In this document: positions 24,849 through 62,182 of the stretch, piece by piece
How positions within the stretch are numbered: position 1 is the first letter of the stretch
How the letters are laid out: each line of letters begins with the position of its first letter
Origin: Haplodiscus bocki
Lineage: Eukaryota
DNA: 64,000 bases
Direction of reading: 5' to 3'
NCBI GenBank assembly: GCA_965655095.1
Contig: OZ296653.1
Span: forward strand, 15,562,001-15,626,000
Notes under the pieces: model-generated
Told to the model about the DNA's origin: nothing
Seen by the model: the letters and a program-made list of their open reading frames with translations, nothing else
Database searches by the model: none
Made by a program: the position numbers and the translations under genes

Positions 24849-27800
24849 ATGATTCGATGTGACGATTGCCAAAAAGTTTTCACATCGAAACGGACTTTTT
24901 ATCAGCATATTCGCCAAAAACAAAATAAAGAGCCAACATTGCATCTGCGGAATTTCGTCTGTGGTCATTGCAATCAAAATCTCCCTTTGTTCGTTCAACC
25001 TTCGTCGCCACATTCGAAATATTCATAATTTAACTGGAAATTTCAAATGTCTTTCATGTTATGTTGTAATCGGATGCGCAGAGTTGCTCGAAAATCATGA
25101 AAAACAAACTCATTTACAAGCCTCCCTGTCTGCTATTTTTCAACACGCTGTGTCCGATCACAACCTGCAAGCTTCTTGTGTTCAAACTTCGCTCAATGAT
25201 ACTTTCAAGGTTTTCATATTAAACCTGGAACCAGAAAACGTGGAACCTTTCGAATTTCTAACCTCCAGTGAGGAGAGTATCATATCATTTGTCAACGAAA
25301 AACTACCTTTTAAGGGGTCGAACAGAGTTGAGATAACTATACATGTTAAACTGTGCAAGTCGTTGCAGGAGGAACGTGTTACTGTGTACTTTCATTCACC
25401 AATGGAGCGTGTTGCGCATGAGTTAGTCCAAGACGATTTTAAGAACATGATTGATGCAATAATTTCACAATTGAATGTGTATTGCTCTGGTGGCTCAGGA
25501 TGGGTCATAGAAACACTAAAAACTTTGGAGATCAGGATAGCCGACCCCTTCAAAGGAACAGCATCATCTTTCATCGAGACCCCAGGTGAACTCAAAAACG
25601 TATACCGAAGTTTGCTCAACATAAAGAGTTCTGGTTTCTTTACTCTTTACTTGCTGGCTTATTTCCTCAAAAAAAGCATGTTGAGCGACCCTCTACTTAT
25701 TCGCCGTACATGGACCAGCTTGTTTATAAACTTTCTAATTTTCCAATGAGTTTAAGCAAAAATCCAAGTTTTGAGAAACTAAATAACGTTTCAAAATCTG
25801 TTTATCGATTCGAACGAGGCAGGCTCCTGAATGTTTTTTATAGCAAAAGTCCAAAATGCCGACGAAAAGTGAAACTGTTGCTGCTTGTTGACCATGACAA
25901 AAGTCACTATTGCCTGATGAAGAACTCTTCGAACCTTATGCACCATCTGACTCGATCTTCGTCAAAAAGAGTTGGAGGTCGAAGAACTCACTTTTGCGGC
26001 ACCAGTATGCAATCAATTGTTAAACACAATAGCAATCACTTTCAGTTTTGTGGGCACCACAAACCGCTGGAAATAAAAATACCAGACAATAACAAAAAGC
26101 TGACTTTCGAAAACTGGCAAAAAACGCAATTAAACCCTTTTGTTGTTTATGCAGATGTAGAGGTAATTGACGTGGCTTTTGATGGTGCTGGTGAAAACAA
26201 TTTTCCAAACACAATCGGAATTCAAAGACAGTATCCCGCTAGCTTCGGAGCTAGTTTTGTTAACTCCAATTGTAAGTGTTTTGCATAGCTTGCGGAACCT
26301 AAAACTTGGCTGTTCTCAACTGCTAATTTTCAAATCAGATCATGTAGTGGGTTTTTGAAGTTTTACGCTTTTTTTGTTACAGCACATACAATTGAGAAAT
26401 CGGCTTTTTATCGAGGCGCAGATTGTATTTCAAAGCTTATGGAAACTCTCCGCTCATGGTTGAAACAGGTGTACAGTGAAAAGCAAACATTCAGGTGGCT
26501 TCAAATTTCTGCCGATTGTGAAAAATACCTATTGTATCCGCTGACAATCATTTGTTGCATATGTGGAGATTCAATTACTCAATCCGAGCGTGTTATTCAT
26601 CACTGTCATGTAACTGGTAAAGTATTCGGAGTGGCCCATTCCTCCTGCAACTTAAAAGCGAGATCAACAAATTATCTGCCATAATTTTTCCATAATCTTT
26701 TACGTCACGATGCTCATCACATTATCAAAAACCTGACTCTTCTCTCCGGTGAAAAGTTGTCTGCCATTTCTCGAACCGACGAAACGTATAATTATTTTAG
26801 CGTTTCTGTTCCTGTCGGATCTTATTATACAAAGAATCATAAAAATGCCACAATTACAAACAACATCAGATTTCTGAATAGTTTCCAGTTCATGTCTCAA
26901 AGTTTAGACTCTCTACAGAAAACATTGAAAAATGATGACTTTTCGCTATTCAAGACGTTTTTTTCTTCCACACATCCGACAGTCGATTGGAAGTTACTCA
27001 CTCGAAAAGGCTATTTTCCATACTCCTATTTGGACTCATTCCCAAAGTTCGAAAAACCTTTACCCATTTATGGAGACGACTGGAAACAAACCTTGACAGG
27101 CAAAATTGACATTTCCCAGGCAGACATTGCCCAAGCCTTCAAAATTTACAGCATGTTTGGTTGTCACAACTTGGGCAATTACCATGATGTGTATTTACGG
27201 ACTGGTGTTTTAATTGTAGCTGATGTTTTTGAGAAATTCCGGCAAGTTTGTATGAAAGAGTACAAACTAGATCCAGTTCACTTCTTCTCAGCTCCCAAAC
27301 TGAGGTGGCACGCAACGCTAATTACTACTCGCGTCGATTTGGGTCTTTTGAGTGATATTGACATGTTGTTGTTTCATGAGAGAGGAATTCGTGGAAGTAA
27401 TAACGGAATTGGTGAGCTACACCATTTCCGAGCTAACAATAGAGATTTGGATGACTTTGATGAAACAAAGGCGAATGTTTACGGTGCGTTTTTTGATGTT
27501 ACTTCTCTTTATGCCGGTACCACGCAACAAACTTTACCTGTGGGCAGTTATGAGTGGAATGAAACACTTAAATCAGAGATATCCTTGCTACCAGCGACGA
27601 TTCAGTTGTTAGATTTTTTGTAGAAGTCGATATGACCTATCCTTCTTCTCTGCATGACTCTCACAATGATTTGCCTCTGGCACCCGAAAAGATATTGATT
27701 CAACAGTCAAGGTTATCTCCCTATGCACAATCTTTCAATGTCAAGTTACCAAGTGACGGTCGAGAAAAACTAGTTGAGACGTTATTGGATAAGAATCGTT

Positions 27801-29337
27801 ACGTTTGCCACTACCGAAAACTTAAATTTTAAGTCAATCAGGGTCTCAAAGTTCAAAAGCTTCATCGTGTAATTCTATTCCGTCAAAGCAAAAGGCTATG
27901 TGATTACATTTCGAAAAACACTATTATGAGTAAGCAAGCAACCAATGATTTCGAGAAAAATCTCTATAAATTAATGAGCAATGCTTGTTTCGGAAAAACT
28001 ATCGAAAACTTGCGAAATCGAAGAGAAATTCTTTTTGTTAACAACGAAAAACAAGCTGGGAAATCGTTGTTGAAACCTACATTCAAATCTTATCAAATGA
28101 TTCATAATGGATTGGTCTCCGTTTCTTTCGCCCTGAGTAAGATTGTTTGGTGAAAGCCTACCCCTGTGGGAGCATCCATACCTGATTAGTCTAAACTGAG
28201 CCTCTACAAGTTCCACTACGATGAAATGAAACCACGTTTTGGTGACAAAATAAAAGTATGCTACAAAGACACGGACTCACTTTTGTATAGAGTCGAGACT
28301 GAAAACTTCTACTCAGAAATAGCCACCTTCAAGCACTTCTTGGACTTGTCAGATTACCCCGCAGAGCATTTTCTACATGACAAAATGAATAAAAAGGTTC
28401 CGCTCACGATGACATATGAATTGCAGGGGAAAGTATTGAGTGAAGTTGTTTGCCTCCAATCGAAACTTTATAGTATTCAAATTGGAGGCGGTGTCAAACA
28501 GAGCACAAAAGGAGTACAAAAAAGTGTCAAAAAAACCCTAAATGACGAATTGTACAAAGAATGTTTGCTGAACAAAGGAAAAGTGAAACGGTTCATGACC
28601 CAACTTAGATCTATAAACCATCAAATTGTTGTCAGTCTCGTTCACAATGTAGCCCTGAGCAGTTATGATGACAAACGGTATCTACTCAATGAAGGCATTC
28701 ATTGGCTCACATACGGACACTACAAAGTTAAGGGACAGCCAAGCAGCAATGGTTAATTTCTTTTTCACATTTTTCGGTAAAGTTCACAGTCTAAAACCCT
28801 CATAATTTTTTCCCTGTGTTTCTCAGAATCCGACGTTTCCTCGCTGCTCAGTCAAAACGACGATGAAAGTGATAATGAAAGTTCCTACTACTCTAACAAC
28901 GCTCCAAGTGACACAGACGTAGATGACAGCCGACGCGCAACTCCACCAACTTTACACAGTTTCCTGCAGCATCACGAATGTTTTTGTTAGAAAGCTCGAT
29001 TTGCTCTTTCTCATCATTGGTTTTCATTTTTCTGGAATTCAAAAATCCGTGAATTTCAGCGCCTCCGGACCCTGGTTTCCACTAACACCACTACTCAGAC
29101 GTCGATAGTGATGAGCATTGCATTGAATGGGACCGCTTCGATGAAGTGGTCGCAGATGCTGAACAAGTCGAACCCAGCAATACGTGTCCCTTCATAGACT
29201 GGGAGGCGTTAGAGTCGATTGATGATGATGTTGATGAAAATTCCCGTGATAGTGCTAGTAAAAATGGTATTTCAGCGTCCGCGAATAAAGGATGTAAACT
29301 TGTTCTCTATAGTGATAGCAGTAACACTGACAACTAG
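24849..29337 (+). pseudogene. polB: Protein-primed PolB (ZnF, TP/OTU, Exo with EndoVII/HNH insertion, Pol), multiply frameshifted, with predicted introns and a spliced acidic tail
   Basis: Fragments in order: C2H2 fingers, YADVE (ExoI), CCIC..HHCHVTG..AHSSCNL (EndoVII/HNH), RKGYFPYSY, DVTSLY (motif A), KLMSNACFGKT (motif B), YKDTDSL (motif C), SKLYS, DDKRY...YGHY ending at 28756. Tail exons at 28827-~28985 and 29060-29337. Confidence 0.95.
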
Positions 29338-29383
29338 TATGAAAATCTATTCATCGTAATTATTCTGAGTATAACAAACCTTA

Positions 29384-29995
29384 TCAAAAATTACAGTTAC
29401 AGTGTATTTTGAAATAACGTACAATGTCAATCTTTGAAACAGTTGTTAGTTTGGAAAGGTAACGGTTGGTGAAACATTGTATTTTCGATGTGAAGCTTTT
29501 ACTTTCTTTACCGAAGAAAGTAGAGACGTTTTCAGCAAAGTGAATTTCATTTAGGTAGTGGGCCATAAACAAACAAAACAGTCCGCATAAGTTAGAACTG
29601 GGATTTTGCATAGGGAAAGTTATCTCAAATGCTCTTATCGTTCTCGATGAAAGGGCAGCTAATCGTTTCTGTATTTTTGTGTAACTTTTGATGTGTTCAC
29701 CGAGAGGATCCCATAGGAAAATCGTTACTATTGCATCACTAGACGTTAGAGCCTGCATTTTTGAAGGATCAATTAAAATGTATGACAGCAAAAGCCAATG
29801 CTGTCTTGCTTCGGTCTGGGCTGCACTGTTTACAATTTGATAGAAAAAAAATTGGCCCGTTGTCACAGCAGAGTCTAGTATTTCCTCAAAGACTCGACCC
29901 AAAAAGAAGTTGTCAGACGAAGCCACACCAATAAATTTTTTGAAAAGTTTGGGACACCAGTTATCCGCCAATTGAATTAACCTCAAACTATCCAT
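29384..29995 (-). CDS. Adenain-like cysteine maturation protease (element B)
   Basis: IVNS...QHWLL...WDPLG...QNPSSNLCGLFC gives the His/Asp/Gln/Cys catalytic set. The true start is probably MDSL at 29995, overlapping the hexon stop. Confidence 0.9.
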   Translation of the reverse strand: MDSLRLIQLADNWCPKLFKKFIGVASSDNFFLGRVFEEILDSAVTTGQFFFYQIVNSAAQTEARQHWLLLSYILIDPSKMQALTSSDAIVTIFLWDPLGEHIKSYTKIQKRLAALSSRTIRAFEITFPMQNPSSNLCGLFCLFMAHYLNEIHFAENVSTFFGKESKSFTSKIQCFTNRYLSKLTTVSKIDIVRYFKIHCNCNF

Positions 29996-31334
29996 TGACC
30001 AACGGCGAAATCTTTGAAAAATTTCGAGAACTGTCAATACAAATTTGACTGAATCTTTCACCAATTAGAAATAACTCGACTGCCTCAGGTAAAGCTTTGC
30101 TGAAAGACAATTTGAATGTTATTCCTGCTCCCGCCAATTCGGGAAAAAGTGTCAAACTTGTGCAAGCTTCTCTTATTGATGTTATGTCGAATACTAGGTA
30201 GAAATGGTTATCCTGATAGTCTTCCAAGGCAATGCCGTTGCCGCCACGTTCGAATCCCAAAGCTGTTATGGTATTGTAAAACAGACGTTTGTCAATTGAT
30301 GTATCGAATGGCGTCACTGCCATTGGTAAACCGTTTCCTCTCAGTAACTTGACCCTTTGCAGGTTAAATTTTTCATAACTAAAAGGCGTTGAAGCCGTCG
30401 TTGTTCCGCGGAAAAAACGATTCCGAACCATGCACAGTGTTAAGCGACGAATGGGTTCAGTGCCAAAGATGTTTTCTTTTACAAAGCAATTCTGTCCGGA
30501 TTGTATTATAAAGTTTTTTGTTGAATTTTCTACGTACGGATATACCGCACAACTCTTTGTGAGCGCCCGTTCAGTGCTAAGTTTCACTGCATCCGACAAG
30601 ACAATCTTGTTGACAAACAGAGATGCTTTCTCAATTACAACAACAGGCGGATTTTTATCAAGACTTTTAACTGCATCTGCATCCAAATCGGTCAAAGTTT
30701 CCAAAGCGCAAAGGTTGGGCGACCGATAGGGGCGTAAGTGAAGTGTCACGCCTGGCAGTAGTAAAAGCTCGCAATCCAAAAAGTCAACATGTGGAGCTCC
30801 ATAGAGGTAAAGTGAGCACGTACCATAATCAGCAAATTTTTTCATGATTTTGTTTTTCTTTTCTAAATTTTTTTCTTCGTTTGGTCGATAACGGTCCATG
30901 TCCTTTTGCTAACTGGGTCTGTTGTTAATTCTGTTTCGACAAAGGCGGCGTGGTGGTAGTTGTTGTTGCTACTGGATGTCAATTTGCCGTTCAGAAATAT
31001 TTCAACGTGTGAAACCAAAGAGTGTAGCGTGTTGTTGGAAAAGTAAATTGTCTGGCGTTGCAGTATCTTTTCCATCTGGGTTGTATAATTTTACGTCCAA
31101 TCCCAAACAAACTGGGTGCAAATCAACGCAGTTTTTATTGTCTGATGTGACAAAAAAATCTAGCTGAGGCCCTCTGCAACCTACATGAGGAAAGACTTCT
31201 TGATCCAAGGATCCTTCCTAATTTATCAGTACGGACGGTCTTTCAAAAAAGTCTAGAGCGCTGTGGGTGACGGGATTTGCAATTTCAGTTGAGGCTCCGA
31301 AATAGAGGTTTTGGTTGCTATTGCTGGTCTTCAT
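29988..31334 (-). pseudogene. Double jelly-roll major capsid protein (hexon/PY), frameshifted (element B)
   Basis: Fragments GPQLDFF, NNTLHSLVSHVEIFLNGK..SSSNNNY, LLPGVTLHL, ALGFERGGNGI, FYLVFDIT, LFPELAGA align with the element C hexon. Confidence 0.9.
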
Positions 31335-31378
31335 CACTCCTTCCTTCGTTATGTGAAGCTTGCTAATCAAGTTCTTCA

Positions 31379-31960
31379 CTAGTTGTTGAACGCCACAACA
31401 GAGAGTATATCGGACCGACTTCTCGCAGCAAACTGCTTCCGATTAATGACTTCTTTCACTTTATTGTCTCGTGTTCGCCGCCCAAACGACGGCCCGCTCA
31501 CCACCCGGTGCCTGCCGGCTCCTTCGCTCGTCTTCCGCCCGCCCGGCCGCCCGCTCCGTCCCGCGCCGCCCACCGCGGTGAGGCAATTGGTCGCACAATC
31601 TCAGATACACTTACAATTGTTTTTTTTTGATGTATATGCGCGAGCAATAACTCGTTTTGAAGAAGCAGCGGAGGTGGTCGGAACAGTGGTTTTTGAAGCA
31701 CTTTTTTTGATTGTTTCCCCAAGCACAGTCTTTTGGTCGTTTCCTACCCGAGAAACTTTTGGTCGTTTGAGAGTTCCGGTACAAATGTCGATAACAAGTT
31801 CTTTCCAAAATCTTTGGCCACAGGCATCACAAATTGTTTTACGAGAGGCATCACTACGCCAATCCTCCAGATCTACAATGCCGCGCCGGCCCGCGAAAAG
31901 CCACTGCATTGGGAGTTCGAATCGCCTTTTGCCAGATTTGATTGGCAAAGTGAGCATCCA
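31379..31960 (-). pseudogene. Basic core protein (adenovirus pVII-like), frameshifted (element B)
   Basis: Fragments GVVMPLVKQFVMPVAK..FVPEL, VGGAGRSG and RSRSDILS match element C 59746-60285. Same position between penton and hexon. Confidence 0.7.
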
Positions 31961-32249
31961 TCAATCTGTCTCGTTCTTTTTATCTCCGTGTCTCTTTTCC
32001 CAACGACCACAGTAAAGGAGATGCTCTTTTGTGACTAACTCTTGTTACAGATTGTCAACGGACAATTGTTGTTCATGTTAGTCAGATGGATGGATGGAAG
32101 CTGCCCACAGGGAGCACGACTGCTTCATCTAACTTCGAATTTAGAGAATAAGGAAATTGGCAAAGTTTAGAAAGAAGCACGCTGGAGCTCAGAAGGATGA
32201 CTACAACAACCACACTGAAAGCAAAAATTGTGGTCTGTTGCGCTGGAAT

Positions 32250-33241
32250 TTATGTTGTTTGTCTAAATTGCAAAGTGATGTTTGTTCTTCCTCGACTCAA
32301 AGCAAAGGAATGAGACCGCCTGCTTCATTTCGAAGAGCAATGGTTAATGAATGAATTGAAGACTTCATCACTCGACGCCATTGAATTCTGGTGAACGTTC
32401 TTTTGTTGTCACCAAGTAGTACGGCCCTGAGTAGTGCTGTTTTTGTGTCTCCGAGAATTCCGTTTTGAACCAAATCACAGTAAAGAAACATAGTGTGACG
32501 TCCTGCTGTTAGATCAACAGGATAGTTACCAATTTGCTCGCTCGTTCTGCTGCGTCTTTCAACTTCTTTTGGTTTTTTACAGTGTTGCGGGACCTCCAAA
32601 CCATGCCTTCCTTCAGGCTGTTTGGCGTCGTTATTCGTTTGGCTACAATCCACTAAGTATTCCAAACCGAGTATGTTTTTCAAATCTTCGGAAACAGCTT
32701 TGAGTCAGATTTTTTTCTTTTCTTTATTTGATGTCGTGCTGAAGTTGAGGTGCAGTAACTGGGAAGCTTCGCAAATCTCCCGGCTCAGTGGCAATTGACT
32801 GATATCTCAGCCAACACTGCTGCAGAGGTTGTCGCATATGGATTGGAGGATAGAGTTGACCGAACTGTAACAGCCTTTCGTTATGAAAAAAACTTCTCTG
32901 GTGAAAATTCTTTTTCAAGCGTAGAACTGTTCCGTTTGAGCAGGTTCCTGGGAACATACATGGAAACCATTCCGTTACCAAAACGCGGCCGCTCAACAAT
33001 AGTTTCTTGTGTTATGTATCACGGTTTTGTTTATCTCGATTAGGTTGATGGCTGAACAGACCTTCTGTCGCGTTTTCAATCAAACCGGGCCATGACAACT
33101 CCACCAACGCAACCTCCCATGTACCGTGGAGGACCAGAGATTGTGGCAGTAAGGTTGTGAACTTAGCGAGCGTGTTATCGGGAAACGTTGACATGGAAGC
33201 GCAGAGACCAAGTTAATGGTGAAACTTTGCTGTTGACTCAT
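32250..33241 (-). pseudogene. Minor capsid protein (penton/PX), frameshifted (element B)
   Basis: FTINL..FPDNTLAKFTTLLP..L.GTWEVALVE at the N-terminus. MFLYCDLVQ..ILGD..TALLR...IALRNE.G.LIP at the C-terminus. Confidence 0.88.
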
Positions 33242-33244
33242 CTT

Positions 33245-34483
33245 TCACTTTATAGCCAATTCTAGGGTGCTCTGCTCGTTGTCTTTCTCGAATCGTACTA
33301 GCTCGCTCTCGTAGAATTTTCCTTGAATCAACTGATGTTTGCAATCTCTGAGTGAATAAGTGAGGGATTCAGTGTTTCCACTGCTGCAATCTGGAAGACC
33401 TCCTCAGTAAATTGGATGCAATATCCAGGATGAAAAAGATCTATTTTGCGTCGAATGCGAACGTTTTGTCCGAGTTTGAACTTTGGTTTTTTTATGGCGT
33501 TACAATTTTGTAAGGATACTAGAAACGATTCGTCAGAGTTTTTCACCTGGTTTGGCGCCAGCCAGGTGACTCGGTTAATTCAGATTCTAGAATTGATGAT
33601 GTCAACAAATGCTTGTAATTGTTCATGATACACTTCAGTGTTGTTTTCGTGAAGATATTTGAAAATCAGAGCTTTGATTGATCTAATGTTCCTTTCAGCA
33701 AACACCGATTTGGTTTCACTACAAGTCGAATAGAGATGGATTCCCGATTATTGACAAAAGTTGGCAGACTCGCGTGCAAATTCCCGGCCTTTATCTACCC
33801 AAATTTTTTCCGGGTTTGGTGATACAGGCCTCGATCCACTGCAGAACCGAGGTTGCAAAACTGGTGGACCCCGTTTACTGCCCTCAATGACGACAACCAG
33901 AGCTTATCGACAGGCTGCTGCTGTTCTTCGTTTAAGTGGAACAACCCACACGAATCGGCTGAGGGTATCCACTGCAACAAAAAGAAACGTTATTCCCTGA
34001 TTGAATTCTGATCTGCATATCAACCAACCAAGTCAATTGACTAGATTTCATTGAGTCGGTAACTTTGAAATTTAGTCCTGTGAAGTTTCTGCGAGCTGGT
34101 TTAAATTTTGTGTAGGTTTCACTTTTTCGTAGGAAATTGTCAACTTATTTGAAGGTGTAATTTGACTCTTTCTTTACGGAACTCCGGCTTCCAAAATAGG
34201 CAGGATTTTGACAGCATGTGTATATGTTATGTAGCTTACTGTATGCTATCGTTTCTTGAGTCGCTGGAACCAAACGACGCGTTCTTGAACACTTTGAGCA
34301 CAAGAAATTCTCGCTTCTATATTTTGCGTACTCGTTTACAGTTGTCAAACCACTGCATTTGTAATGAACCCAACCACAAACGTTGCAGCAGATGGAGGGT
34401 TGTTTACGCGAGCCTTTTCCGAGAGCTTTTTGACAGTTGTCACAAGTGTATTTTTTTTGCGCGTGCGTTTCGTCGTTTAACAA
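33245..34483 (-). pseudogene. Retroviral-like DDE integrase with N-terminal PHD finger (element B)
   Basis: C4HC3 PHD (CDNC...CCNVC..WVHYKC...FLCSKC) is in frame with YSKLHNIY..PAYFGS. Past one stop come ETYTKFKP, AVDTLSR, WVDKGREF, AERNIRSIK, PKFKLGQNVRI, GKFYESEL. Confidence 0.9.
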
Positions 34484-34542
34484 TGATAAACTAAAACTAC
34501 CACCCCTTCTTAGGATGATTTTGACAGTTGTGATTGTTTACT

Positions 34543-35221
34543 TCAGTCTAGACGCAGCCATTTGGCGTGTTCATTATTGGGTCCAGGAAACGATTTGAAT
34601 GGGCTTTCATTGTTTTCGTTTGAGCCACTTTTCATTTTTGATAACACTTTTTTAGCAAAAGTGTTTGCGAGAAGATATTCTGGTAAACGCAAACGTTTCA
34701 CCAAGTCCAGGCTTAAATCGTCAATCCTTTTATTAGGTATCTGAATATCGGAAAGAAAATCTAAAACTGCCCATCCTGTGTCTCCGTCGTGCAGGCAGAT
34801 TCTCCCAGAAATGTTGTAGATAGAAACATGCCCAATGTTGCTGCTTTTTCCAAGGATTTGTCGGGCTCGCTCGACCTTGCCACCACTCAAACCGCAAGAC
34901 AAAAGGTCCAAAATAACTGTTTATGACTTCACAGCTGTCGCTGCGTCCTCAGTTCGTTTGACGTCAGAGAGACTGCTCCTTGTTGCTTTGCCGAACCTTG
35001 TTTTCAAAGTCATTTGCGCACATTCTGATGCTCTTGGAAAGTCACGAGGAGTATCGATTGAGTTTCCGAGATTAATTTTTGCACAAAATTCTGGACTCCA
35101 ACTTCTAGTGTCATTGGGGTTCACGAAAGTGTGGTTGTCATGAGATTATGCCTGCTACAAGCGATGAGTGTTCATCGAGTGTTATAAGGATGAATTCTTT
35201 TGTCCTACCGCTCGATGCCAT
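34543..35221 (-). pseudogene. Conserved Polinton protein of unknown function between ATPase and integrase (element B)
   Basis: KEFILITLDE at the start and VLDFLSDIQ..NKRI match element C 56788-57505 (DEFVLVPL; ILTFLRDLQ..QKKI). Confidence 0.6.
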
Positions 35222-35344
35222 GGCGTATTTCTAAATGACGTGAAACCGAAGGTTGTATCAAAGCGAGCAGTTTCAATCCGTGGCTAGTTGACAAAATTTG
35301 TCGCTTTCGAACCAATCCCACTTTCCTGTTACATAAAATTTCTA

Positions 35345-35536
35345 TCAATCTGCTGTGCCTCTCAATTTTTTCTTGGAAAAATTCTCAGCCATTGCAATAT
35401 GCCCACTGACAATGTCAAAAAGACAGTTGCAGAAAAAAAATAGATTTTCTTTTGAACAACATAAAAGATACAAACGCCTCACGATTGGTTTCACGTTAAC
35501 AAAAAATTCAAACATATAAAGCTCTCGTTGACTCAT
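35345..35536 (-). CDS. Small hypothetical Polinton protein overlapping the ATPase end
   Basis: 63-aa ATG ORF with FFCNCLFDIVSG. Support is positional only. Confidence 0.4.
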   Translation of the reverse strand: MSQRELYMFEFFVNVKPIVRRLYLLCCSKENLFFFCNCLFDIVSGHIAMAENFSKKKLRGTAD

Positions 35537-36214: not shown

Positions 36215-36444
36215 CCGTTTGGTACCAAGTAACCGATGCACGTTGACAAAATTGCGATAAACCCAGTTTGCAATGATCTGTTCTCAGCGAAAGCTAGGTA
36301 GGCAATGGAGAAGATTACAATCACACCAACGATGAAGTAATGAGAAAGTACTAAAAAGAAGCGGTTAAATTCAATTTTGTCCGAAAGCAGCCGCAATTGA
36401 ACTGAAATGGAGGTCTGTTTCATTACCATCAAAGATGAAATCAT
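36205..36444 (-). CDS. Small two-helix membrane protein (element B)
   Basis: Two hydrophobic segments ending ILSTCIGYLVPN, homologous to ILSNCIAYLLPN in 55058-55624. Confidence 0.7.
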   Translation of the reverse strand: MISSLMVMKQTSISVQLRLLSDKIEFNRFFLVLSHYFIVGVIVIFSIAYLAFAENRSLQTGFIAILSTCIGYLVPNGKE

Positions 36445-37229: not shown

Positions 37230-37232
37230 TTT

Positions 37233-51645: not shown

Positions 51646-52605
51646 ATGGATTTTCGACGCAAGCCATCTTCCCTTTATGCACACTTCGTGTTTTATCCCA
51701 ACCAAACTTTCGAAGGAAAAGCTGTTGAACAATGCGAGTACGTTCGGGAAAAACTGCAAGCCATTTTTGCTGAAAACAACGTTGATTATGTAATCGGTGC
51801 CCATCTTTTCCAATGTTATAAACAATGTGGATACAAAAATGATGACGTCCGTTGTGTATTAGCGGTCTCTGCGAACAATCCAACCGGTCGCTTTCCTGCA
51901 GGGAAGTGCTATATTCTACCTGAGCCCCGGGACTGCTTGACAACCAATAACCACATTCATATTCTAGTCAACGCCCCATCAACAATTGCTGCTCTTGATG
52001 TTGATTCAAAACAGGGCACCTCAGCTAAGAAAGCTGAAAAGTTGGAAGCCGTTCCGTTCAAAAAGTCCAAAATGACAAAGGAGGAGGAAGAGGGCGACAA
52101 CAAAGAGGCGAGAGCTGGACAGAGTAATGAACACAACATCTCTTCAACAAGAGCGCCGCTGAAGACTGAAAATACAATTGGACCCAAAAAACATGGCTCC
52201 CAGGAAGTATTCAATGGTATGCGTAAGTTCCTAGACGAAGAGACATGTGGTACTAATGAGGTTTTCCCAACAAAAGAAAACACAGTCAATTGGCGACTAG
52301 AGGAGATGATTCGCCAAATACAAGATTTTTTCAGCCTAAACTTGAAGATGAAGAGTGAGCTGGGAAGTTTTTCGGTTCAACAAAGAACCGTATGGTGTCC
52401 ATACTCGATCTTCAGCAGTTTCTTGTGCTGCATGAACGATGGTTTCACATTGGTGAAAGGTAATACCTTCCTAACAAAAATGATGGAGGAGAGAAAGAGA
52501 CAAAGTGCGGACTATGCAAACAGAGAGTTGTACCTTAAACTTTCTCCAAAACTCAGAGCAAAAGTTTTGTGGGATTTTCATTGTGTGTGGGGCCACGAGA
52601 TTTAG
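51646..52605 (+). CDS. Hypothetical protein with HUH-like motif
   Basis: 319-aa ORF containing NHIHILVN. Homolog in element B. Confidence 0.7.
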   Translation: MDFRRKPSSLYAHFVFYPNQTFEGKAVEQCEYVREKLQAIFAENNVDYVIGAHLFQCYKQCGYKNDDVRCVLAVSANNPTGRFPAGKCYILPEPRDCLTTNNHIHILVNAPSTIAALDVDSKQGTSAKKAEKLEAVPFKKSKMTKEEEEGDNKEARAGQSNEHNISSTRAPLKTENTIGPKKHGSQEVFNGMRKFLDEETCGTNEVFPTKENTVNWRLEEMIRQIQDFFSLNLKMKSELGSFSVQQRTVWCPYSIFSSFLCCMNDGFTLVKGNTFLTKMMEERKRQSADYANRELYLKLSPKLRAKVLWDFHCVWGHEI

Positions 52606-52788: not shown

Positions 52789-53385
52789 ATGTTGCACCTG
52801 TCAATCACAAAAATTGAAAACATTTTTCAAGTAGCGCATAAATTTTACAGACATAGCCAGGAAGATAATTATGACTTACTATATGAGCTTATGATAACAG
52901 ACAGCGATTCAAGCAAAGCTGATGAAGCAGTGATTTCAGAGAAAATCTCTTTACGACTAGGGTACGCTATACCGAGTTATTTGCAGTTCAATCGTCTGCT
53001 TTTCTTGAGCATAATTCTTGTCGAAACAAACCAATGTTCTTGTGCAGGGATCTGTGAGGAATGTGCTGTTTCCAAGATTTTGAAGTGCTGCGAGTTATCT
53101 CACACGGCACCTTGGGGTGGAATAATAGGGCCGGGTATGACATTGAGAATGCATTCCGTCCTTTCTTCTCTTTCACCATTTTTTAAATTACATGCCGTGT
53201 TTCATGATGCTTATGGTCACTTGTATCGGACTCGTAGGAAATGTCCAGGTTATAATTACGTAATTAACTTACCATTTCTCCCAAATTACTTTTTGTTGGG
53301 TCATTTGACGGGTCTCTTCTTCTTTTTCATATTGAGAATTACAAATTCCCAATCTTTCAGGTACTTTGTGTCAGCATTAAAGTGA
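52789..53385 (+). CDS. Parvovirus-VP1u-like phospholipase A2 protein (PLA2X-type)
   Basis: APWGGIIGPG...FKLHAVFHDAYG...PGYNY...LLGHLTG. First ATG at 52789. Confidence 0.8.
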   Translation: MLHLSITKIENIFQVAHKFYRHSQEDNYDLLYELMITDSDSSKADEAVISEKISLRLGYAIPSYLQFNRLLFLSIILVETNQCSCAGICEECAVSKILKCCELSHTAPWGGIIGPGMTLRMHSVLSSLSPFFKLHAVFHDAYGHLYRTRRKCPGYNYVINLPFLPNYFLLGHLTGLFFFFILRITNSQSFRYFVSALK

Positions 53386-53422: not shown

Positions 53423-54391
53423 ATGACTGCCTGCCTCCCTTTGTCAGACACCTTGCGCATAAACTTTGAATTCTCACAAGTAGATCCGCCAGCTATGAAC
53501 CAATTCTGGCAAACTCCTCAACAGTCGTCTTATCCGAAAATTTTCCTGGTGAGAGAGTACTCAGGAATTGGTCTTCCTGCAGGCGCATCTTTACAGCCTC
53601 CTAGTCGCCCCAATTACTTGGATATGAGCTGGGACGAATATTGCTCTCTGGTGCAAAGCAAGCCTTTAGCCCTGAATATAGTATCGTTTCGCGACCAAAA
53701 TATTTCACAGGGCGGAGAAAGTGGTCGAAACCAGCGCACTTTATCTTACTACAATCGTCCTTCCCAGGTGTTGCTGTCTAACTTCGTTTATCAAAACACC
53801 CCGCTTACTAGCGTGAATCCAGTTGCTGTTACCAACATGAATTCAGCAGCTGCCTATGTAAGGAACAATGCTTCTAATTACCGTCAGACCCAACTGGACA
53901 GTTCGTCGATTTTTCCGCCTCGATCTTCTTCTTCTTCTTCTTCTTCTAGTTATTACATGAATATCCCTCGAATTTCGTGTGGGGAGGGCTCTTGCTGTAC
54001 CCAAGGAGAATGGAGAGGTGGTGGTGGTGGTGGTGGTGGTGTGGCAGCAAACTCGAGTCCTTATCAGTTGAGCACGCAAGACCCTACCACATGTCATCAA
54101 TTGCGACAACCGATCGTGACCAGCAGTGTCAGCCTAACAGCACAAATGAGTGGCAATTGTCAAGCTTCTGGTTCCGACAACTTGTCCACGATTGCTGGAG
54201 GCCGATCTTCAACGTCATCAGATGTCCCAAACAGCTCGTCATTAGCGCTCACGTCCAATCTCGACAATTCGGAAGACCCAAGTGCGAGTGCTTATGATGA
54301 CTACACTGCAGACGAAGACATGAGCGACTATGATGGGGGGAACGAGGCCGTTAGCAGTGAAACGCAATACGAGGGCGCCCCAACAGCGTGA
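53423..54391 (+). CDS. Hypothetical protein: PC4-like N-terminus, Ser/Gly/acidic low-complexity tail
   Basis: 322-aa ORF with (TCT)n and (GGT)n runs. N-terminus parallels 36526-36765. Confidence 0.7.
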   Translation: MTACLPLSDTLRINFEFSQVDPPAMNQFWQTPQQSSYPKIFLVREYSGIGLPAGASLQPPSRPNYLDMSWDEYCSLVQSKPLALNIVSFRDQNISQGGESGRNQRTLSYYNRPSQVLLSNFVYQNTPLTSVNPVAVTNMNSAAAYVRNNASNYRQTQLDSSSIFPPRSSSSSSSSSYYMNIPRISCGEGSCCTQGEWRGGGGGGGGVAANSSPYQLSTQDPTTCHQLRQPIVTSSVSLTAQMSGNCQASGSDNLSTIAGGRSSTSSDVPNSSSLALTSNLDNSEDPSASAYDDYTADEDMSDYDGGNEAVSSETQYEGAPTA

Positions 54392-55057: not shown

Positions 55058-55624
55058 ATGAGCATTTTGAGCTCGACTTTGACCTTTTTAATTCCTCCAC
55101 CTAGTCTCTCCGGAAGTGTGAGCAAATCGAACAAAAATCTCCCTCTATCCACTGGGATCTCCAGAAGAGGCAACCCGAAACAATCATCATCTACAAGACA
55201 TGAAGATACGCAGGTGTGCAGCCAAACTGGGAAATACTTTGAAAACTGTCGAGATAACGCAAACGTACAAACACACTTGTCATTGCCAGAAGCCTATGGA
55301 GAAGATTGCCTTGATTGCGCAGAATGTCAGGAGGTTACACTGACGGCTGGGATACCAAAAGTGCTCCACGATAACGAAGCTGTTGACAACCAGGAAGACA
55401 TCAAAGACGTTTGGATATTTTTCAATCGAAACGTTGGCCGTGAGTTTTTCATTTTTTGCTCACAATTAGTTTTTGTATTCGTTTCCATTGTATTCTGTAC
55501 GTTGAGGATGCTGATTGTTTCTTCGTTGAGCTGCGAAGAACGTACTGCTTACACCATGATCCTTTCCAACTGCATCGCTTATTTACTGCCTAACGCCAAC
55601 TCCTTCAGAAAAACTTTTGACTAA
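55058..55624 (+). CDS. Membrane protein with two C-terminal helices
   Basis: FFIFCSQLVFVFVSIVFC...ILSNCIAYLLPN. Directly upstream of the ATPase, as in element B. Confidence 0.75.
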   Translation: MSILSSTLTFLIPPPSLSGSVSKSNKNLPLSTGISRRGNPKQSSSTRHEDTQVCSQTGKYFENCRDNANVQTHLSLPEAYGEDCLDCAECQEVTLTAGIPKVLHDNEAVDNQEDIKDVWIFFNRNVGREFFIFCSQLVFVFVSIVFCTLRMLIVSSLSCEERTAYTMILSNCIAYLLPNANSFRKTFD

Positions 55625-55630: not shown

Positions 55631-56710
55631 ATGAATAAAGTAATTTCCACTGAGACTCGCGTCTTTATGTGCGTATGTGGATCGTCCGAATCAGGCAAGA
55701 CACATCTTATTATGAATATGTTAACACAAAAAAACGGTATTTTTGAGCCTCGTTTTGAAAAAATTGTTTACTTTTACCGCTTTTGGCAGCCTGTGTATGA
55801 TCGCTTCATCAAAAAGTGTTCTGCAAAAGTTTTTTTTGAGGATTGCAGCGATCTCAAAAAGTTTCCCGTAGGAACATCCTGGAAAACTAACCCCTTGCAC
55901 AAATTCAGTTCACCTGTGAAGCCCCCCAGCCAGCAATCTTCTTTTGATTCGCTCATCGAAAACCTTCTGAATCATCAAATGAAAGACAGCGGTTTTCAAA
56001 CTGTCTCCGGCAATGACAAAGTCTTGGCATATTTCGATGATTCCTGTGATGATATTTTGGAAAGTGTCAGTTTTGCTAATTTGGCGACAGCTGGCCGGCA
56101 TAAAGGCGTCAGTGCTATTTTTATCAAACACAATTTGTACCAACAAGGAAAGTATTGCGTTACTGTAGACAAAAACACTACCCATGTAGTTATTTTAAAA
56201 TCGCCGAGAATAGGCCGACAATTGAAAATTCTTGGCTCCGAGCTGCAAACTGCGGACTCTGCTTTCCTCGAAGCAGCCTACCAGCAGGCAACATCCATCC
56301 CTTTTGGACATTTGCTGATTGATCTCACCACTACATGTCACGATTCTTTAAGATTTTGTACCAGAATTTGTAACTTTGACAATAGCCTTCGAAGTAGGCA
56401 CAATTATAGCTTGACAAGCCAAGAAGCACCTCCGAGAAAAGCCGGCAAATTTTTGAAAAACATATCGAAAACTGAATCAGTACCGCATAGTCGTCCAATT
56501 TCTACTGATGAATTACAGTTACCGACGGGTTTCTTTCTACCTAAAAAAGTGTTGTTTCAGTACGCTCGCCCAATTGCAGCCGAAGATCACGCAAACAGAA
56601 ATTATCATCAATATGTTAAACTGAGAAAAGATCCACCAATCATACCATTTTCTACCTTATCCTCAACGGCTTCAACGTATAAACCCTTAGTAAAATCTCT
56701 GCTGACATGA
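55631..56710 (+). CDS. FtsK/A32-like genome packaging ATPase
   Basis: Walker A GSSESGKT, Walker B AYFDD, AGRHKG..KHNLYQQ, PFGHLLIDL. Confidence 0.94.
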   Translation: MNKVISTETRVFMCVCGSSESGKTHLIMNMLTQKNGIFEPRFEKIVYFYRFWQPVYDRFIKKCSAKVFFEDCSDLKKFPVGTSWKTNPLHKFSSPVKPPSQQSSFDSLIENLLNHQMKDSGFQTVSGNDKVLAYFDDSCDDILESVSFANLATAGRHKGVSAIFIKHNLYQQGKYCVTVDKNTTHVVILKSPRIGRQLKILGSELQTADSAFLEAAYQQATSIPFGHLLIDLTTTCHDSLRFCTRICNFDNSLRSRHNYSLTSQEAPPRKAGKFLKNISKTESVPHSRPISTDELQLPTGFFLPKKVLFQYARPIAAEDHANRNYHQYVKLRKDPPIIPFSTLSSTASTYKPLVKSLLT

Positions 56711-56787: not shown

Positions 56788-57505
56788 ATGGATGAATTTG
56801 TGCTTGTTCCCCTAAAACTTTATTTCGAGTTAACGTCGCACGTCTGTCCCACTATAGTTTCATCGAGTAATCTGCCCGATCAAGTATCCCCTCACGTTAC
56901 TACCAAAGATCAATCAATAGACAAACTTGAAACCCCATTGTCATCAGCATCATCATCTGGACTCATTGCCAATTCGGCCGGTTTGGCTGCAAAAGACGAC
57001 CTTGCCAACCCTACTGCAGAAAAAAATCAGACGACAAGAGAAAAATTTGAAACAGCTTGGCTGGAAGACGTCACAAAAAATACGGGAGTTAGCGACAAAA
57101 CTTCCAACGAAACGCCTCCTAAGACAAATAAAAGGGACTCATCGTTGCGGAAAAAAACGCATTGAAGGATTGCTGAGGTTACTCTTGGAAAAAGAAGAAG
57201 TGAGCTTCAATACTTCTAACAAAAGTTTTACAATTTCGAAAAAAGATTCACGTGAGAGCGGGATTCCTGAAGAAGAAGAAACATCCATAGCTCCGACAAA
57301 AAAAGCTGGCAATTTGGGCTTGGGAGATATCAAAATTTTGACCTTTCTTCGTGACCTCCAGTTGTATCAGAAGAAAATACCTGCAAACTACTTTTTTGTT
57401 CTCGACTTACTATTTCCGCCGACGAGCTCTATTTCGTTCATAAACGCTAAAGAGTTAGTTGTTAATAGAAATTGCTTGAACTACATTTTGAACAGAAACA
57501 TTCAT
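56788..57505 (+). pseudogene. Conserved Polinton unknown protein, frameshifted near 57130, running into the assembly gap
   Basis: Two overlapping frames together match element B 34543-35221. Confidence 0.6.
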
Positions 57506-57661: not shown

Positions 57662-58669
57662 CAAGAGGGTCTCAGGACAACAGAATCCGAATATCGCAAA
57701 CTACATGGTCTATATACATCGCTCAATCATCCAAGCGCATTTGGTAGTATCTCCAACTTGAGGAATGCTAGTGGATTGCCACGAAAGAAAGTTTTGGCAT
57801 ATTTAGAAACCTCGAAAACTTACACAAAGTTCAAGCCAGCCCAAAGGAAATTTCCACGCCTACCGGTGATTTCCCTTGGCATAAACCACATTTGGTCCTT
57901 GGATGTCGCATATATGGAAAAAATAGCAAAATTCAACGACGGTGTCAAGTACCTTCTTCTTGCAGTAGACAGTCTCTCGCGGAAAATTCGAGTTCAGCCG
58001 TTGAAATCAAAAACCGCCCTTGCTGCAAAATTGGCTTTCGAACGAATGGTTAACTTTGAAACTTTTGAGTTCCCCATAAAGTTGTGGGTTGATGGAGGTA
58101 AAGAGTTCAAAGGTGAGTTCAAAAAATTCTGTAGAGAAAATGAGATCGAAGTGTACCATACATACAGTGAAACCAAAAGCTGCATGGCTGAAAGGTACAT
58201 AAGGACATTGAAAACTTTACTATACAAATATTTTGAGGAATACCAAACTTTCAGGTATATTCCTCAACTTCAAAAATTTGTATCCCTTGTGAACAAGCGG
58301 CGAAATCGGTCGATTGGAATGGCTGCTGATGACGTCAACGCAAAACATGTTCCCCATTTAGTCTCACTTCAGAAACGGCAGTCATTTCCTGGTTCAAAAC
58401 AACCCAAGTTCAAAGTTGGCGATCGCGTTCGCATTGCTTTCAAGGAAATGCCATTTCAAAAAGGCTACAAGCAGCAGTATACAAACGAAGTCTTCAAAGT
58501 ATCACGAGTTTGTGTACCAAAAGTAAAAGGTCCAGTGACATACAAACTCCTCGACTCTAAAGATGAACCCATTTTGGGCAAATTTTACACTCCCGAGCTG
58601 ACTCATTTTAAATACTTACAGGACCGTGGACGGTCGCGCCATCAAACTATATCGTTTGCTACAAGTTAA
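57662..58669 (+). CDS. Retroviral-like DDE integrase (start unresolved next to the gap; no C-terminal chromodomain)
   Basis: YRKLHGLY..HPSAFGS...WSLDVAYM...AVDSLSR...WVDGGKEF...AERYIRTLK...PKFKVGDRVRI..F.KGY...GKFYTPEL. Confidence 0.94.
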   Translation, partial: QEGLRTTESEYRKLHGLYTSLNHPSAFGSISNLRNASGLPRKKVLAYLETSKTYTKFKPAQRKFPRLPVISLGINHIWSLDVAYMEKIAKFNDGVKYLLLAVDSLSRKIRVQPLKSKTALAAKLAFERMVNFETFEFPIKLWVDGGKEFKGEFKKFCRENEIEVYHTYSETKSCMAERYIRTLKTLLYKYFEEYQTFRYIPQLQKFVSLVNKRRNRSIGMAADDVNAKHVPHLVSLQKRQSFPGSKQPKFKVGDRVRIAFKEMPFQKGYKQQYTNEVFKVSRVCVPKVKGPVTYKLLDSKDEPILGKFYTPELTHFKYLQDRGRSRHQTISFATS

Positions 58670-58744: not shown

Positions 58745-59584
58745 ATGAGCAATTCCATTATGCACGACCAATTCACCATCAATTTGTCCTCGAACGCTTC
58801 CCTTAATGTTTACAAATCAAATACTCTAGCTTCCTTCAGAACAATCCTTTCATCTCCATTAGAGCTCGAAGGAAGCTGGGAAGTTGGTGTTACCGAAATG
58901 ACCTACCCAAGACAAATATACAATATTCGAGACTCTTGTTTTGATTTTTTTTATCATGGAAAGAAGTCTTGGGTGAAAGAATGTGAAATTGGAAAAGGCA
59001 TTTACCATAACGTGGATGATCTTCTGGAAAAAATGATTAGAGCTATTCACCTCAAGAGGGGTGTTTGGAATAAGGAAAAACTTCACAGGTATATTAGCTG
59101 GAAGGTGGATGAGCAAGGCAAACTGGAAATATACAACAGTTCTACAACTAAGTTCGCCAATGTGTCACCTGATTTGTTTCACGTTCTCGGCTGCCAACAG
59201 GAGCCTTCCCCATGGCAACATCCGCCGTCAATCCACGATTCTCCTGGGGCTTTTCCTGTTGATATTCACCACTGGCACCAAGTGTACGTTTACGGAGACT
59301 TCATTGAGCAGCAGTTCGTTGGGAACAGCCGAGCTCCATTGCTGAACAGCTTTCCTCTCTTCAACCCACAACACATGCCACCCAAGGAAGTAGGAGAAAA
59401 ACCGGGTGGTGTTTTAGGTTATGGCGCGTGCTCATTTATCACTTTCTCCAATCCTATCTTCAAGGTTTCGAAAACGACTTTGATTGATTTGTTGATTGAA
59501 TTGAGGACTGATACTGGTGATTTGGTTCCCTTTGTTGGTGTTGGTCGTACTACTGCAACGTTGGTTTTTCGGAAGAAAATTTAA
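58745..59584 (+). CDS. Minor capsid protein (penton/PX)
   Basis: FTINLSSNAS..Y..NTLASF..LELEGSWEVGVTE; VYVYGDFIE.Q.VG...APLL; IELRTDTG..VPF..TATLVFR. Confidence 0.9.
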   Translation: MSNSIMHDQFTINLSSNASLNVYKSNTLASFRTILSSPLELEGSWEVGVTEMTYPRQIYNIRDSCFDFFYHGKKSWVKECEIGKGIYHNVDDLLEKMIRAIHLKRGVWNKEKLHRYISWKVDEQGKLEIYNSSTTKFANVSPDLFHVLGCQQEPSPWQHPPSIHDSPGAFPVDIHHWHQVYVYGDFIEQQFVGNSRAPLLNSFPLFNPQHMPPKEVGEKPGGVLGYGACSFITFSNPIFKVSKTTLIDLLIELRTDTGDLVPFVGVGRTTATLVFRKKI

Positions 59585-59745: not shown

Positions 59746-60285
59746 ATGCCCCGTGCCAATCAAAATCATGAGATAGGCCCGAGCAGTATAAATTACTTTC
59801 GAGGATCTCCATATCGTCAATATGGAAGTGGCTTCGGAGCAGCCATCAAAGCTGGCTTGAAGGGGTTCGTAATACCAATGGTGAAAAGATATGGTATTCC
59901 TGTCGCGAAATCGTTCCTACAACAGGCTGCTCCAGAATTGATCAATATTTTGGATGGTAGCACCAAGCCGAAAGCAGCAATGCGAAACGCTGTGAAAAAG
60001 ACAATCCGAAAACAAGTTGGTGGGGGACGCGGCGGCAGATTCACGAGACGTGTACCGTTACGTCGATCAAACACAAAAAAGTCTTCTTCTTCTCAGAAAA
60101 GGCGAACAATGTCAAAGAAGACTAGCAGAAAAAAACAACAAGGCAAACGTCGAAACCAAGTGAAAAAAAAGTCATTAAAAAAAGTTCAGTTCCGTAAATC
60201 AGTTGGCAAATCACGCAAACAGGGAACAACAAAGAAAAAAAGAAGTCGGCAAGATTTCTTCAGTTCCATAGTTGATCGCGCTTAA
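59746..60285 (+). CDS. Basic core protein (adenovirus pVII-like)
   Basis: RQYGSGFG motif, adenain-type site QVGG/G, K/R-rich C-terminus. Confidence 0.8.
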   Translation: MPRANQNHEIGPSSINYFRGSPYRQYGSGFGAAIKAGLKGFVIPMVKRYGIPVAKSFLQQAAPELINILDGSTKPKAAMRNAVKKTIRKQVGGGRGGRFTRRVPLRRSNTKKSSSSQKRRTMSKKTSRKKQQGKRRNQVKKKSLKKVQFRKSVGKSRKQGTTKKKRSRQDFFSSIVDRA

Positions 60286-60370: not shown

Positions 60371-61707
60371 ATGCCTGATTCATTTGTTTATTCTGAGCCA
60401 CCTGTGCCTGGCATGCATTCCGGGTTATCGCTGTTTGGGCCATCAGAGATTCTTGTGGATTTTCAACGAGGATATCATGAAGAAGTTTTTGCACCAACAA
60501 GCGCTGATGGGCCAGTATTAGAATTTGACTTCCAGGGCGCAAAAACTGACATTGGCGGTACAGTGATAGACCTGGTCAACCTCTTTGTGAAGTTAGACGT
60601 CAAACTTAAATATGTCGGCAAGGAGAAAGCGGAAGATGTGGCTGATCTGAAGCCTACGTTTGTCAACAATTTGATGCACAGTTTATTTCAAAATGTAGAA
60701 ATTTCACTCAATGGAACACCAATTTCTTCTGCAAACAACCTCTATCCATTTAAAGCTCTAGTTGAAGCAGAGTTATCGCACAATGCTTCCTGTAAAGAGG
60801 GTTGGCTTCGCTGTCAAGGATACGAGTTCGAGACAGATCCTGGAGATATTGCAGATGGTAAAGCTTTCACAAATCGTCAAAAATTGGGAAATAACTTGAC
60901 AACAAAGTTTTCCTATTACGGTCGACTTGCTGCAGTTTCCTGGCGGACAATCACAAATTTCTGTTACCGGGAGTCGAAGTGCGTGTTCGTCTGTATCGCT
61001 CTCCTGACCAATTTGTCCTCATACACCCGAATTCGGCAAAAGAATCTCAAGGTGACTTTTCTCTACAGATTCTCAATGCTTCACTGTTGGTCCATAAATT
61101 AGAGCTTAAAAATGAAACTTATCTCACAATTGAGCGCATGCTGTCGAAAAAAGCAGCCCATTATGACTTTCGGGAAATAGTGCCAAAGTCGTTTTTGATA
61201 TCCAGTGGTGTAACTATGTATTATCGGGATGATATTTTCAACAGAGCTCCGATTAGCCGCCTAGTCATGTTTATGGTACCCGAAACGAGCTTTAGTGGAA
61301 ACTTCGAAACAAACCCTTTCCACTTCCGGCTGATGGATTTGGAAACAGTTCGTCTCAATCGCGAGGGATCCCTCGTCGGCGCGACGCCTCTACATCTAAA
61401 CGACAACCTGGTCCGCTCCTACTACCAGTCGCTCAAAGCCTTGGGATTCGAGCATGGTGGTAATGGAATAACACTCGGCAATTTTGAAAACCACTTTTGT
61501 TTAGTTTTCAAACTTACAGCCGACTACCATATTGAAGACAACACAATTCGCCCGGAACTAACTGGTGCCCGGTTGGGTCTTGAACTGAAGTTTTCAAAAG
61601 CCACTACAGACCCAGTACGTCTTATTCTGCTCGGTGAGAGAAGATCTGTATTGCTTATCGACCGCAATCGAGAAGTTATAAAAAATTCAAGTATCTACAA
61701 TGGTTGA
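60371..61707 (+). pseudogene. Double jelly-roll major capsid protein (hexon/PY), single frameshift near 60935
   Basis: GPVLEFDF, NNLMHSLFQNVEISLNG..ISS.NNLYPFKA, then LLPGVEVRVRLYR...NPFHF...GNGIT...GLELKF. Confidence 0.93.
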
Positions 61708-62182
61708 TAACACCCAGCTCACTTACTTGATCAACCGAGACCCTATTCTGAAGTTCAAATATCGCGGGTGTTTTGCACGAGACACTTTCCCCATTTTAAA
61801 ACATAACGAGTTTGTCATTGTTAACATTGACCCGTCTTCCCAGGCTGGTGAGCACTGGCTGCTCATAGCCTCAAAAAACGACACAGTGTTGCCATACGAC
61901 AGTTTTGGAAGGGACTTTTCACAGTTTTTTGGGGATATTTACAAGAAAGTTCAAGCATGGAGCAAGCTCTAACACCAAAAAGTTTTTCAGTACATGCCAA
62001 CGTCAACGCTCTTGCAACCTTTTGATAGTCAGTTCTGTGGCATATTTTGTCTTTTTATAGCATATTTTTATTACAAGACAAAGAAATCGTTGACTGATAA
62101 AAAAACAATTCAAATATCCAGCTTTCCTGCATATGCCACAGAGGAAGACATCTTGCGCTTCGCCGCAGCCATGTTAACATGA
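61700..62182 (+). pseudogene. Adenain-like cysteine protease with one in-frame stop (61970-61972)
   Basis: IVNIDPS..GEHWLL..YDSFG, then in the same frame LQPFDSQFCGIFC. Confidence 0.9.

Follow-up and report, generated by a model that had tools for sequence, protein, structure and literature searches.

Introduction

The exchange of PolB among Polintons is already published. In nematode Polintons with pPolB1/pPolB2, for which capsid and integrase trees are host-specific, the capsid, ATPase and integrase genes form a set particular to the host, which occurs with a canonical, an HNH-bearing or a divergent VSR-bearing PolB, and the polymerase alone was replaced (Jeong et al., 2023, PMC10748475). 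Adintoviruses feature Alpha (PF03175-positive) and divergent Beta PolB classes, which reassort with virion modules (Starrett et al., 2021, PMC8502044). Likewise, reassociation of replication and capsid modules was described as frequent across Polisuviricotina, with tandem integration and homing nucleases being proposed as its routes (Barth, Ha, Aylward, 2026, bioRxiv 10.64898/2026.10.13.758929). In addition, nuclease inserts were noted in Polinton PolBs (Krupovic, 2024), and Polinton end motifs as well as VSR as a group marker were given in PMC8097293 and PMC10328495, with Polinton group numbers running in opposite senses between papers. No account of acoel Polintons was found in the literature search, outside of which lay subscription articles as well as the supplementary host lists of Jeong and Starrett; these may cover acoels.

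Here, a 64,000-nt stretch of the genome of Haplodiscus bocki (GCA_965655095.1, contig OZ296653.1, 15,562,001-15,626,000, forward strand), in the following called the window, was analyzed. It contains the Polintons B and C and, at positions 1-1403, the 5' part of a third one, A. By their sequence, B and C are Polintons, since both feature terminal repeats, 6-bp target duplications, a PolB, an rve integrase and capsid, penton, ATPase and protease genes. The reading preferred here, to which a probability of about 0.78 is assigned, states that the capsid, ATPase and integrase genes of B and C belong to one clade of elements of this host (the host clade) while their PolBs are unrelated, probably since recombination exchanged the terminal polymerase cassette two or more times early in this clade and again later. 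The locus is a further instance of PolB exchange, and the detail added concerns three polymerase lineages, one swap of young age and the match between termini and polymerase type.

A close likeness is to the nematode Polintons, with different PolBs on one host-specific gene set. Unlike there, where the median capsid identity of swapped elements is ~92% and PolB classes are interspersed in module trees, B and C are ~30% identical and each deep PolB type sits on its own sublineage; moreover, repeats are conserved in the nematode elements, whereas the terminal hexamer differs by PolB type here (Jeong et al., 2023). As in the adintovirus hybrids, two PolB classes reassort, and an outside metagenome locus (L233) features an Alpha PolB with Beta-class hexon and ATPase. 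Those hybrids join an Alpha PolB to Beta virion genes, whereas B looks like the reverse, its class being inferred without the references of that study (Starrett et al., 2021). In contrast to the mosaicism of Polisuviricotina, where PolB travels with the integrase (Barth, Ha, Aylward, 2026), the integrase here stays with the capsid genes. The VSR-like insert, (AGT)2 ends and 6-bp target duplications are in line with the Polintons of PMC8097293 and PMC10328495, while the (AGA)2 end of C is outside the three end motifs given there. As a VSR-like insert occurs in two unrelated PolB lineages here, it is not a marker of one clade.

Polymerases and virion modules of B and C

The PolBs of B and C fall into different clades, as a sequence-only reading of the window had claimed. 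They gave no blastp match to each other at E<10, and in the PolB tree C joins PolBs of insects, molluscs and fish (support 100) while B is grouped with Gigantopelta and with Beta elements from outside this genome (99). Monophyly of the host-element PolBs was rejected (p 4e-30). The PolB of C matches PF03175 with E 2e-27, is co-directional with the module and clusters with Alpha-type polymerases. The fragmentary PolB of B matches PF03175 with E 9e-7 and the EndoVII family PF02945 with E 2e-4, the latter below the cut-off. Its unbroken relatives all feature C2H2 fingers and PF02945 (3/3), in two of the three above the cut-off, and none PF03175 (0/3). These relatives and the position of the gene at 24849 (+) bear out the zinc finger and EndoVII/HNH-type PolB, convergent with the module, that had been proposed for B. 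Its sequence fits the Beta adintovirus class (divergent, EndoVII-bearing). For C, the proposed VSR-type, co-directional PolB held with respect to orientation and PF03175 class. The VSR part draws on a Vsr-like motif of the insert, on its weak profile match to 1VSR (E 0.14) and on a fold comparison with 1CW0 (Z 6.0, root-mean-square deviation 4.6, 112 amino acids (aa)), in which RAP and other nuclease folds score above and around Vsr, and the model of the insert gave no significant Foldseek match. On this moderate evidence, the insert may be called Vsr/restriction-nuclease-like.

The virion modules tell a different history. Genes for the PLA2-like protein, membrane protein, ATPase, integrase, penton, pVII-like protein, hexon and protease lie in the same order and are homologous between B (- strand) and C (+ strand) according to tblastn (E 5e-42 to 5e-3). 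By blastp, identities amount to 30% for the hexon (443 aa), 32% for the ATPase (244 aa), 39% for the integrase (327 aa), 21% for the penton (234 aa) and 24% for the protease (123 aa). The shared gene order with peptide similarity that had been noticed is thus confirmed for these eight genes. The extent assigned to the two elements, 24849 to 62182, covers the B and C region, but both run further (Table 1).

Searched against 1.84 billion proteins, a profile of 11 host hexons hit 9951 representatives. Within the top 150 of these matches, the full-length proteins drop from at least 370 bits to at most 235 bits. With 42 outside hexons, chosen from the 83 full-length proteins of these matches that score below the host type, all host hexons and 21 near ones form one clade (Shimodaira-Hasegawa-like approximate likelihood ratio test, SH-aLRT, 100). 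For the hexon with 72 rows and the ATPase with 24 rows, quick trees are given. Further outside elements with known PolB came from 103 viral and metagenome loci retrieved by PolB alignments, with a hexon piece being detectable in 14. Support for the host clade was 100/99 for the hexon (22 rows, mixture model), 99 each in the ATPase and integrase trees with outside loci and 100/100 on five concatenated genes. Forcing the C family together with outside Alpha elements was rejected in approximately unbiased (AU) tests by the hexon (p 0.002; mixture model p 0.023) and by the ATPase (p 0.0004 and 3e-5). Capsid and ATPase trees separating B and C congruently with PolB were accordingly not seen. Among the outside loci with a hexon, the hexon class of the host occurs in 6 of 9 with Alpha PolB and in 0 of 5 with Beta PolB. 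In these trees, which comprise outside loci rather than named adintovirus reference genomes, hexon and ATPase of B group with the class found in outside loci with Alpha PolB and apart from the hexons of 4 and the ATPases of 11 Beta-PolB loci. As a whole element, B looks less like a Beta adintovirus than like a Beta PolB placed on an Alpha-class-like module.

The trees support at least one PolB replacement within one capsid lineage as an ancient event. The swap within one capsid lineage proposed by the sequence-only reading is retained in this sense, hexon, ATPase and integrase joining the host elements in conflict with PolB; its sister-level form is not. B and C head two of four host sublineages, which form a polytomy, and B+C was neither recovered nor rejected with five genes (p 0.19). 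Sisterhood in capsid trees, which had been expected, was hence not recovered, with module identities of 21-39%, and the near-identical module of a recent swap of the nematode type is absent between B and C. From these comparisons, B and C are two old, distant Polinton families rather than close sisters.

The wider genome (1.5 Gb) agrees with an old split. Hexon searches scored 150 of several thousand candidates each; among the matches listed, relatives of the C hexon range from 95% identity downward, and at least 150 relatives of the B hexon show at least 53% identity. From these searches, 80 hexon matches were hand-picked across identity bands and the first 70 were taken with 20 kb around the hexon. 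The PolB was Alpha in 20 of these elements, Beta in 46 and of a third type in 2, with none found in 2. Alpha PolBs are confined to the hexon clade of C, and neither the pairing of an Alpha PolB with a hexon of the B type nor its opposite occurs in any of the 70 elements, a result that speaks against reading the swap as recent or local. The B family is represented elsewhere by eight copies (89-92% DNA identity to B), collinear across PolB and module, and the C family by four copies (90-94% to C) with the same PolB. Among the RefSeq proteins of Convolutriloba macropyga, an acoel, are a C-type hexon, a B-type hexon and a Beta PolB with a neighboring locus number. By these labels, the host of B and C is likely an acoel, too. 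As both hexon types and the Beta PolB occur in this second host, the split between the B and C families likely predates the divergence of Haplodiscus bocki and Convolutriloba macropyga.

Further polymerase lineages, layouts and termini

The sequence-only reading had stated that animal Polinton PolBs fall into two deep clades, whereas a third lineage occurs on the same capsid clade. The PolB of the elements E36 and E37 shares 22-24% identity with Beta types, is not alignable with the PolB of C and carries a region resembling Vsr (E 0.05). A related PolB, 62-63% identical over 338 aa, is characteristic of the large F family of near-identical copies (L264-L273), with about 118 genome matches listed and terminal repeats of ~730-900 bases (98%). 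In F copies, PolB is located upstream on the opposite strand (5/5 sampled), and hexon, ATPase and integrase fall inside the host clade. An alignment of third-type PolBs found no outside relative in viral_contigs, and searches there with the C integrase, the host hexon alignment and one outside hexon gave no match.

The four sublineages of the host clade thus feature five layouts: an Alpha PolB upstream and co-directional (C), a Beta PolB downstream and convergent (B) or downstream and co-directional (E21 type), and a third-type PolB downstream and co-directional (E36) or upstream and divergent (F). The layout of E40 is convergent. PolB is located toward one element end in all five, and three PolB types on the host clade imply at least two replacements. 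Two separate captures of Beta PolBs, by the convergent B clade and the co-directional E21 clade, were considered and ruled out, as the Beta PolBs form one clade.

A younger exchange was found between Beta subfamilies. Between E56/57/64/67 and E58/63, hexons are 83-90% identical and PolBs 47-51%, and all 8 of 528 pairs with a hexon identity of at least 78% but a PolB identity of at most 65% are of this kind. DNA homology between the two groups stops just after the protease gene (E56, E57, E58, E63 and E64 are held by loci L113-L118 and L127-L130), and PolB and module data each reject the topology of the other. E56 and E58 thereby show the pattern known from nematodes (Jeong et al., 2023), a similar module with a PolB of another subclade, both PolBs being Beta.

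Terminal hexamers follow the PolB type, with AGAAGA accompanying Alpha PolBs and AGTAGT the others. AGAAGA ends were found in C and in most copies of both C-clade subfamilies, where 14 of 21 downstream loci contain the motif, 2 have near variants and 5 have no clear end. AGTAGT ends occur in the B, E21, E36 and F families, where ends were captured. In the pair with the young swap, E56 differs from E58 over its initial 0.5 kb, and the first 42 bases match E65, the PolB relative of E56.

Protein-primed polymerases need a matching terminus. A replacement of the end cassette could therefore bring the matching terminus, i.e., the replication origin, along with the polymerase, by recombination between co-infecting or neighboring integrated elements. 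A broader generalization is tentatively offered, at odds clearly below even: polymerase and terminal origin might form an exchangeable end cassette, so that one capsid-integrase radiation would have been re-engined by three unrelated PolBs in five layouts, with most sampled families being hybrids of Beta PolB and Alpha capsid, swaps ongoing between subfamilies and each polymerase fixing its own terminus. As PolB fails to track Polinton ancestry in this further case, PolB-based groups mislabel whole families. A genome with hundreds of copies, at least four capsid sublineages, three PolB lineages and both old and young swaps offers a natural data set on what moves with the polymerase; termini appear to do so and the integrase does not.

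Alternative explanations and direction of exchange

The grouping of the capsid genes could also be obtained without any exchange, if B and C were ordinary Beta and Alpha Polintons with inherited modules, drawn together by long-branch attraction in a fast-evolving host. The long stem of the host clade, the low identity between the B and C modules and a PolB type that changes just once on the within-genome hexon tree would agree with this. Nevertheless, it is considered improbable, as the B hexon is 15% identical to Beta-class, 20-23% to outside Alpha-class and 29-31% to other host families, and the gap from 370 to 235 bits sets the full-length host-type hexons apart from all others. Furthermore, hexon, ATPase and integrase agree on the host clade, gene order and accessory genes are shared across it, and the rejection persists under the mixture model. 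A recent or local chimera, in which one window element took its PolB from a neighbor, would suit the presence of three Polintons within ~75 kb, the tandem setting proposed as a source of mosaics (Barth, Ha, Aylward, 2026). It has hardly any probability left: the eight B-family and four C-family copies elsewhere carry the same PolBs as B and C, which excludes local chimerism for either of the two; terminal repeats and target duplications match in both, and couplings or hexon types of both recur in the Convolutriloba macropyga records. Polymerase replacement within one capsid lineage is thus preferred, with several points weighing against it. The stem of the host clade is long (0.7-1.0) and raw identities of the C hexon are close (31% with B, 38% with a B-family copy in better condition, 29% with the nearest outside hexon), which makes rate effects possible. 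The mixture-model hexon test reaches only p 0.023, and the integrase AU test is confounded since the outside Alpha integrases are themselves not a clade. Besides, outside sampling is thin, with few elements and hosts without label, and the tie between terminus and PolB in the case of the young swap comprises only 42 low-complexity bases.

With regard to the direction of exchange, the layout of C is somewhat favored as ancestral. The ancestor would then have combined an Alpha-class virion module with an upstream Alpha/VSR PolB, as in C, and the Beta/EndoVII and third-type PolBs would have entered later. The loci L200, L207 and L236 show the one-strand order PolB-ATPase-integrase-penton-hexon of C and likewise contain the small membrane protein, and this direction takes two replacements compared with three for a Beta ancestor. 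The hexon class of the host, seen in 6 of 9 outside loci with Alpha PolB but in none of 5 with Beta PolB, points the same way. The polytomy of the four host sublineages weighs against a firm choice. The competing view of this step, in which the host clade started out with a Beta PolB and the C lineage re-acquired an Alpha/VSR PolB together with a new terminus, is a serious if less probable option. It draws on the single clade of host Beta PolBs, on the AGTAGT terminus common to the B, E21, E36 and F families and thus to three of four sublineages, on the HUH-like open reading frame (ORF) limited to the B and C clades, and on weak signals from two integrase trees, one grouping B+C at 91 and the other linking the host clade with four Beta elements from outside (94, long branches). 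However, with hexon and ATPase belonging to the class seen in outside Alpha elements, a Beta ancestor would take three replacements; moreover, the layout of C agrees with these elements and the five-gene tree does not recover B+C.

Gene content of the window and minor observations

The features of both elements are compiled in Table 1.

Table 1. Features of the Polintons B and C, in positions of the window.
Feature	Position	Strand	Remarks
Polinton B, decayed copy, 14.9 kb	23888-38742	.	ends AGTAGC / AGTAGT
B target duplication, 6 bp	23882-23887 and 38743-38748		CACAAG
B left terminal inverted repeat	23888-24051	+	pairs with 38581-38742; ~165 bases, 83%
B right terminal inverted repeat	38581-38742	-	pairs with left repeat
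B PolB, zinc finger + EndoVII (Beta) type	24849-28753	+	3 frameshifts, 5 stops; convergent with module
B maturation protease	29387-29995	-	PF00770 E 0.007
B hexon (major capsid)	29991-31334	-	4 stops
B pVII-like remnant, weak	31765-31905	-	tblastn E 0.005
B penton (minor capsid)	32300-33241	-	6 stops
B rve integrase, broken	33266-34456	-	3 frameshifts, 5 stops; homologous to C integrase
B packaging ATPase	35511-36208	-	PF04665 E 1e-8; one frameshift
B small membrane protein remnant	36208-36375	-	tblastn/blastp against C
B small ORF in 'PC4-like' slot	36529-36753	-	PC4-like identity not confirmed
B PLA2-like gene	36781-37190	-	motif only
B HUH-like gene	37242-38114	-	shared ORF, HxH, fold comparison
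Polinton C, 22.0 kb	41178-63147	.	ends AGAAGA
C target duplication, 6 bp	41172-41177 and 63148-63153		GAGATA
C left terminal inverted repeat	41178-41246	+	69 bases, pairs with 63079-63147, 93%
C right terminal inverted repeat	63079-63147	-	pairs with left repeat
C tandem array in left arm	42081-43578	.	145-bp unit, 10.3 copies, 97% matches, palindromic core per unit
C PolB, PF03175 (Alpha) type	46453-51477	+	1675 aa, single open frame
VSR-like insert of C PolB	49039-49587	+	motif and fold, moderate scores
C HUH-like gene	51646-52602	+	shared ORF, HxH
C PLA2-like gene	52789-53382	+	motif only
C ORF in 'PC4-like' slot	53423-54388	+	homology to B ORF there not found
C membrane protein	55058-55621	+	tblastn against B
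C packaging ATPase	55631-56707	+	PF04665 E 3e-4
C small ORF ahead of integrase	56788-57162	+	
C rve integrase	57662-58666	+	PF00665 E 5e-8; stretch of N before gene
C penton	58745-59581	+	
C pVII-like basic protein	59746-60282	+	name from sequence character
C hexon, two overlapping frames (one break)	60371-61704	+	
C protease, one internal stop	61700-62179	+	

The hexon is identified by weak PF16903 matches and by relatives labelled F54H12.2-like, with no phage or PDB match of the host hexon. Regarding the accessory genes, the earlier labels held to different degrees. The HUH-like ORF is common to the B and C clades only and its HxH motif is invariant; no tyrosine occurs among the invariant alignment columns. 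Its fold matches the SV40 T origin-binding domain, AAV5 Rep and RepB with Z 6.6-7.0, and Rep and origin-binding folds in general with Z 6.2-7.0, below the threshold of Z = 8, and the model gave no significant Foldseek match. The shared ORF thus stands, while the HUH label with its Rep-like fold is suggestive only. Similarly, the PLA2-like gene is shared by B and C with a conserved GxIGPG...HAxxHDAxG motif, on which its label rests, without Pfam or PDB match and without counterpart in the outside Alpha loci. The PC4-like gene claimed for both elements was not recovered as a shared one: in this slot, B-family and C-family ORFs gave no blastp cross-match and no Atlas match, and a clean PC4-like profile matched no C-family member. 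An iterated PC4-like profile was discarded as it drifted into the PLA2 family.

Upstream of its PolB, C contains two accessory ORFs without Pfam match at 43653-44774 and 45055-45813 (+), the second being weakly related to sequences that follow the protease gene of E21-type elements. In the second C-clade subfamily (L013-L034), no penton was detected between the integrase and the pVII-like gene or in the rest of the 20 kb (E06-E17, E19); it may be lost, moved or too divergent. Polinton A comprises the (-) strand of window positions 1-1403 and the adjoining locus L261 (contig 15552001-15562000), with a Beta-type zinc-finger PolB convergent with the module and a hexon 66% identical to that of B. 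The locus L250 (E29) contains a Beta PolB gene partly duplicated in tandem, and an E21-type element features a small membrane-anchored, cysteine-rich ORF (L047:7394-7702) that is EGF-like by eye only. Two host-type PQ-loop frames (PF04193) lie at 11221-11979 and 39483-40052 (-), one of them between B and C. These frames, together with flanking DNA repeated near 12.3-12.8, 14.4, 23.8 and 38.8 kb, suggest a local host duplication. Finally, a faint hexon-like remnant is located at 6088-6252 (-), with 24% identity and E 6e-4.

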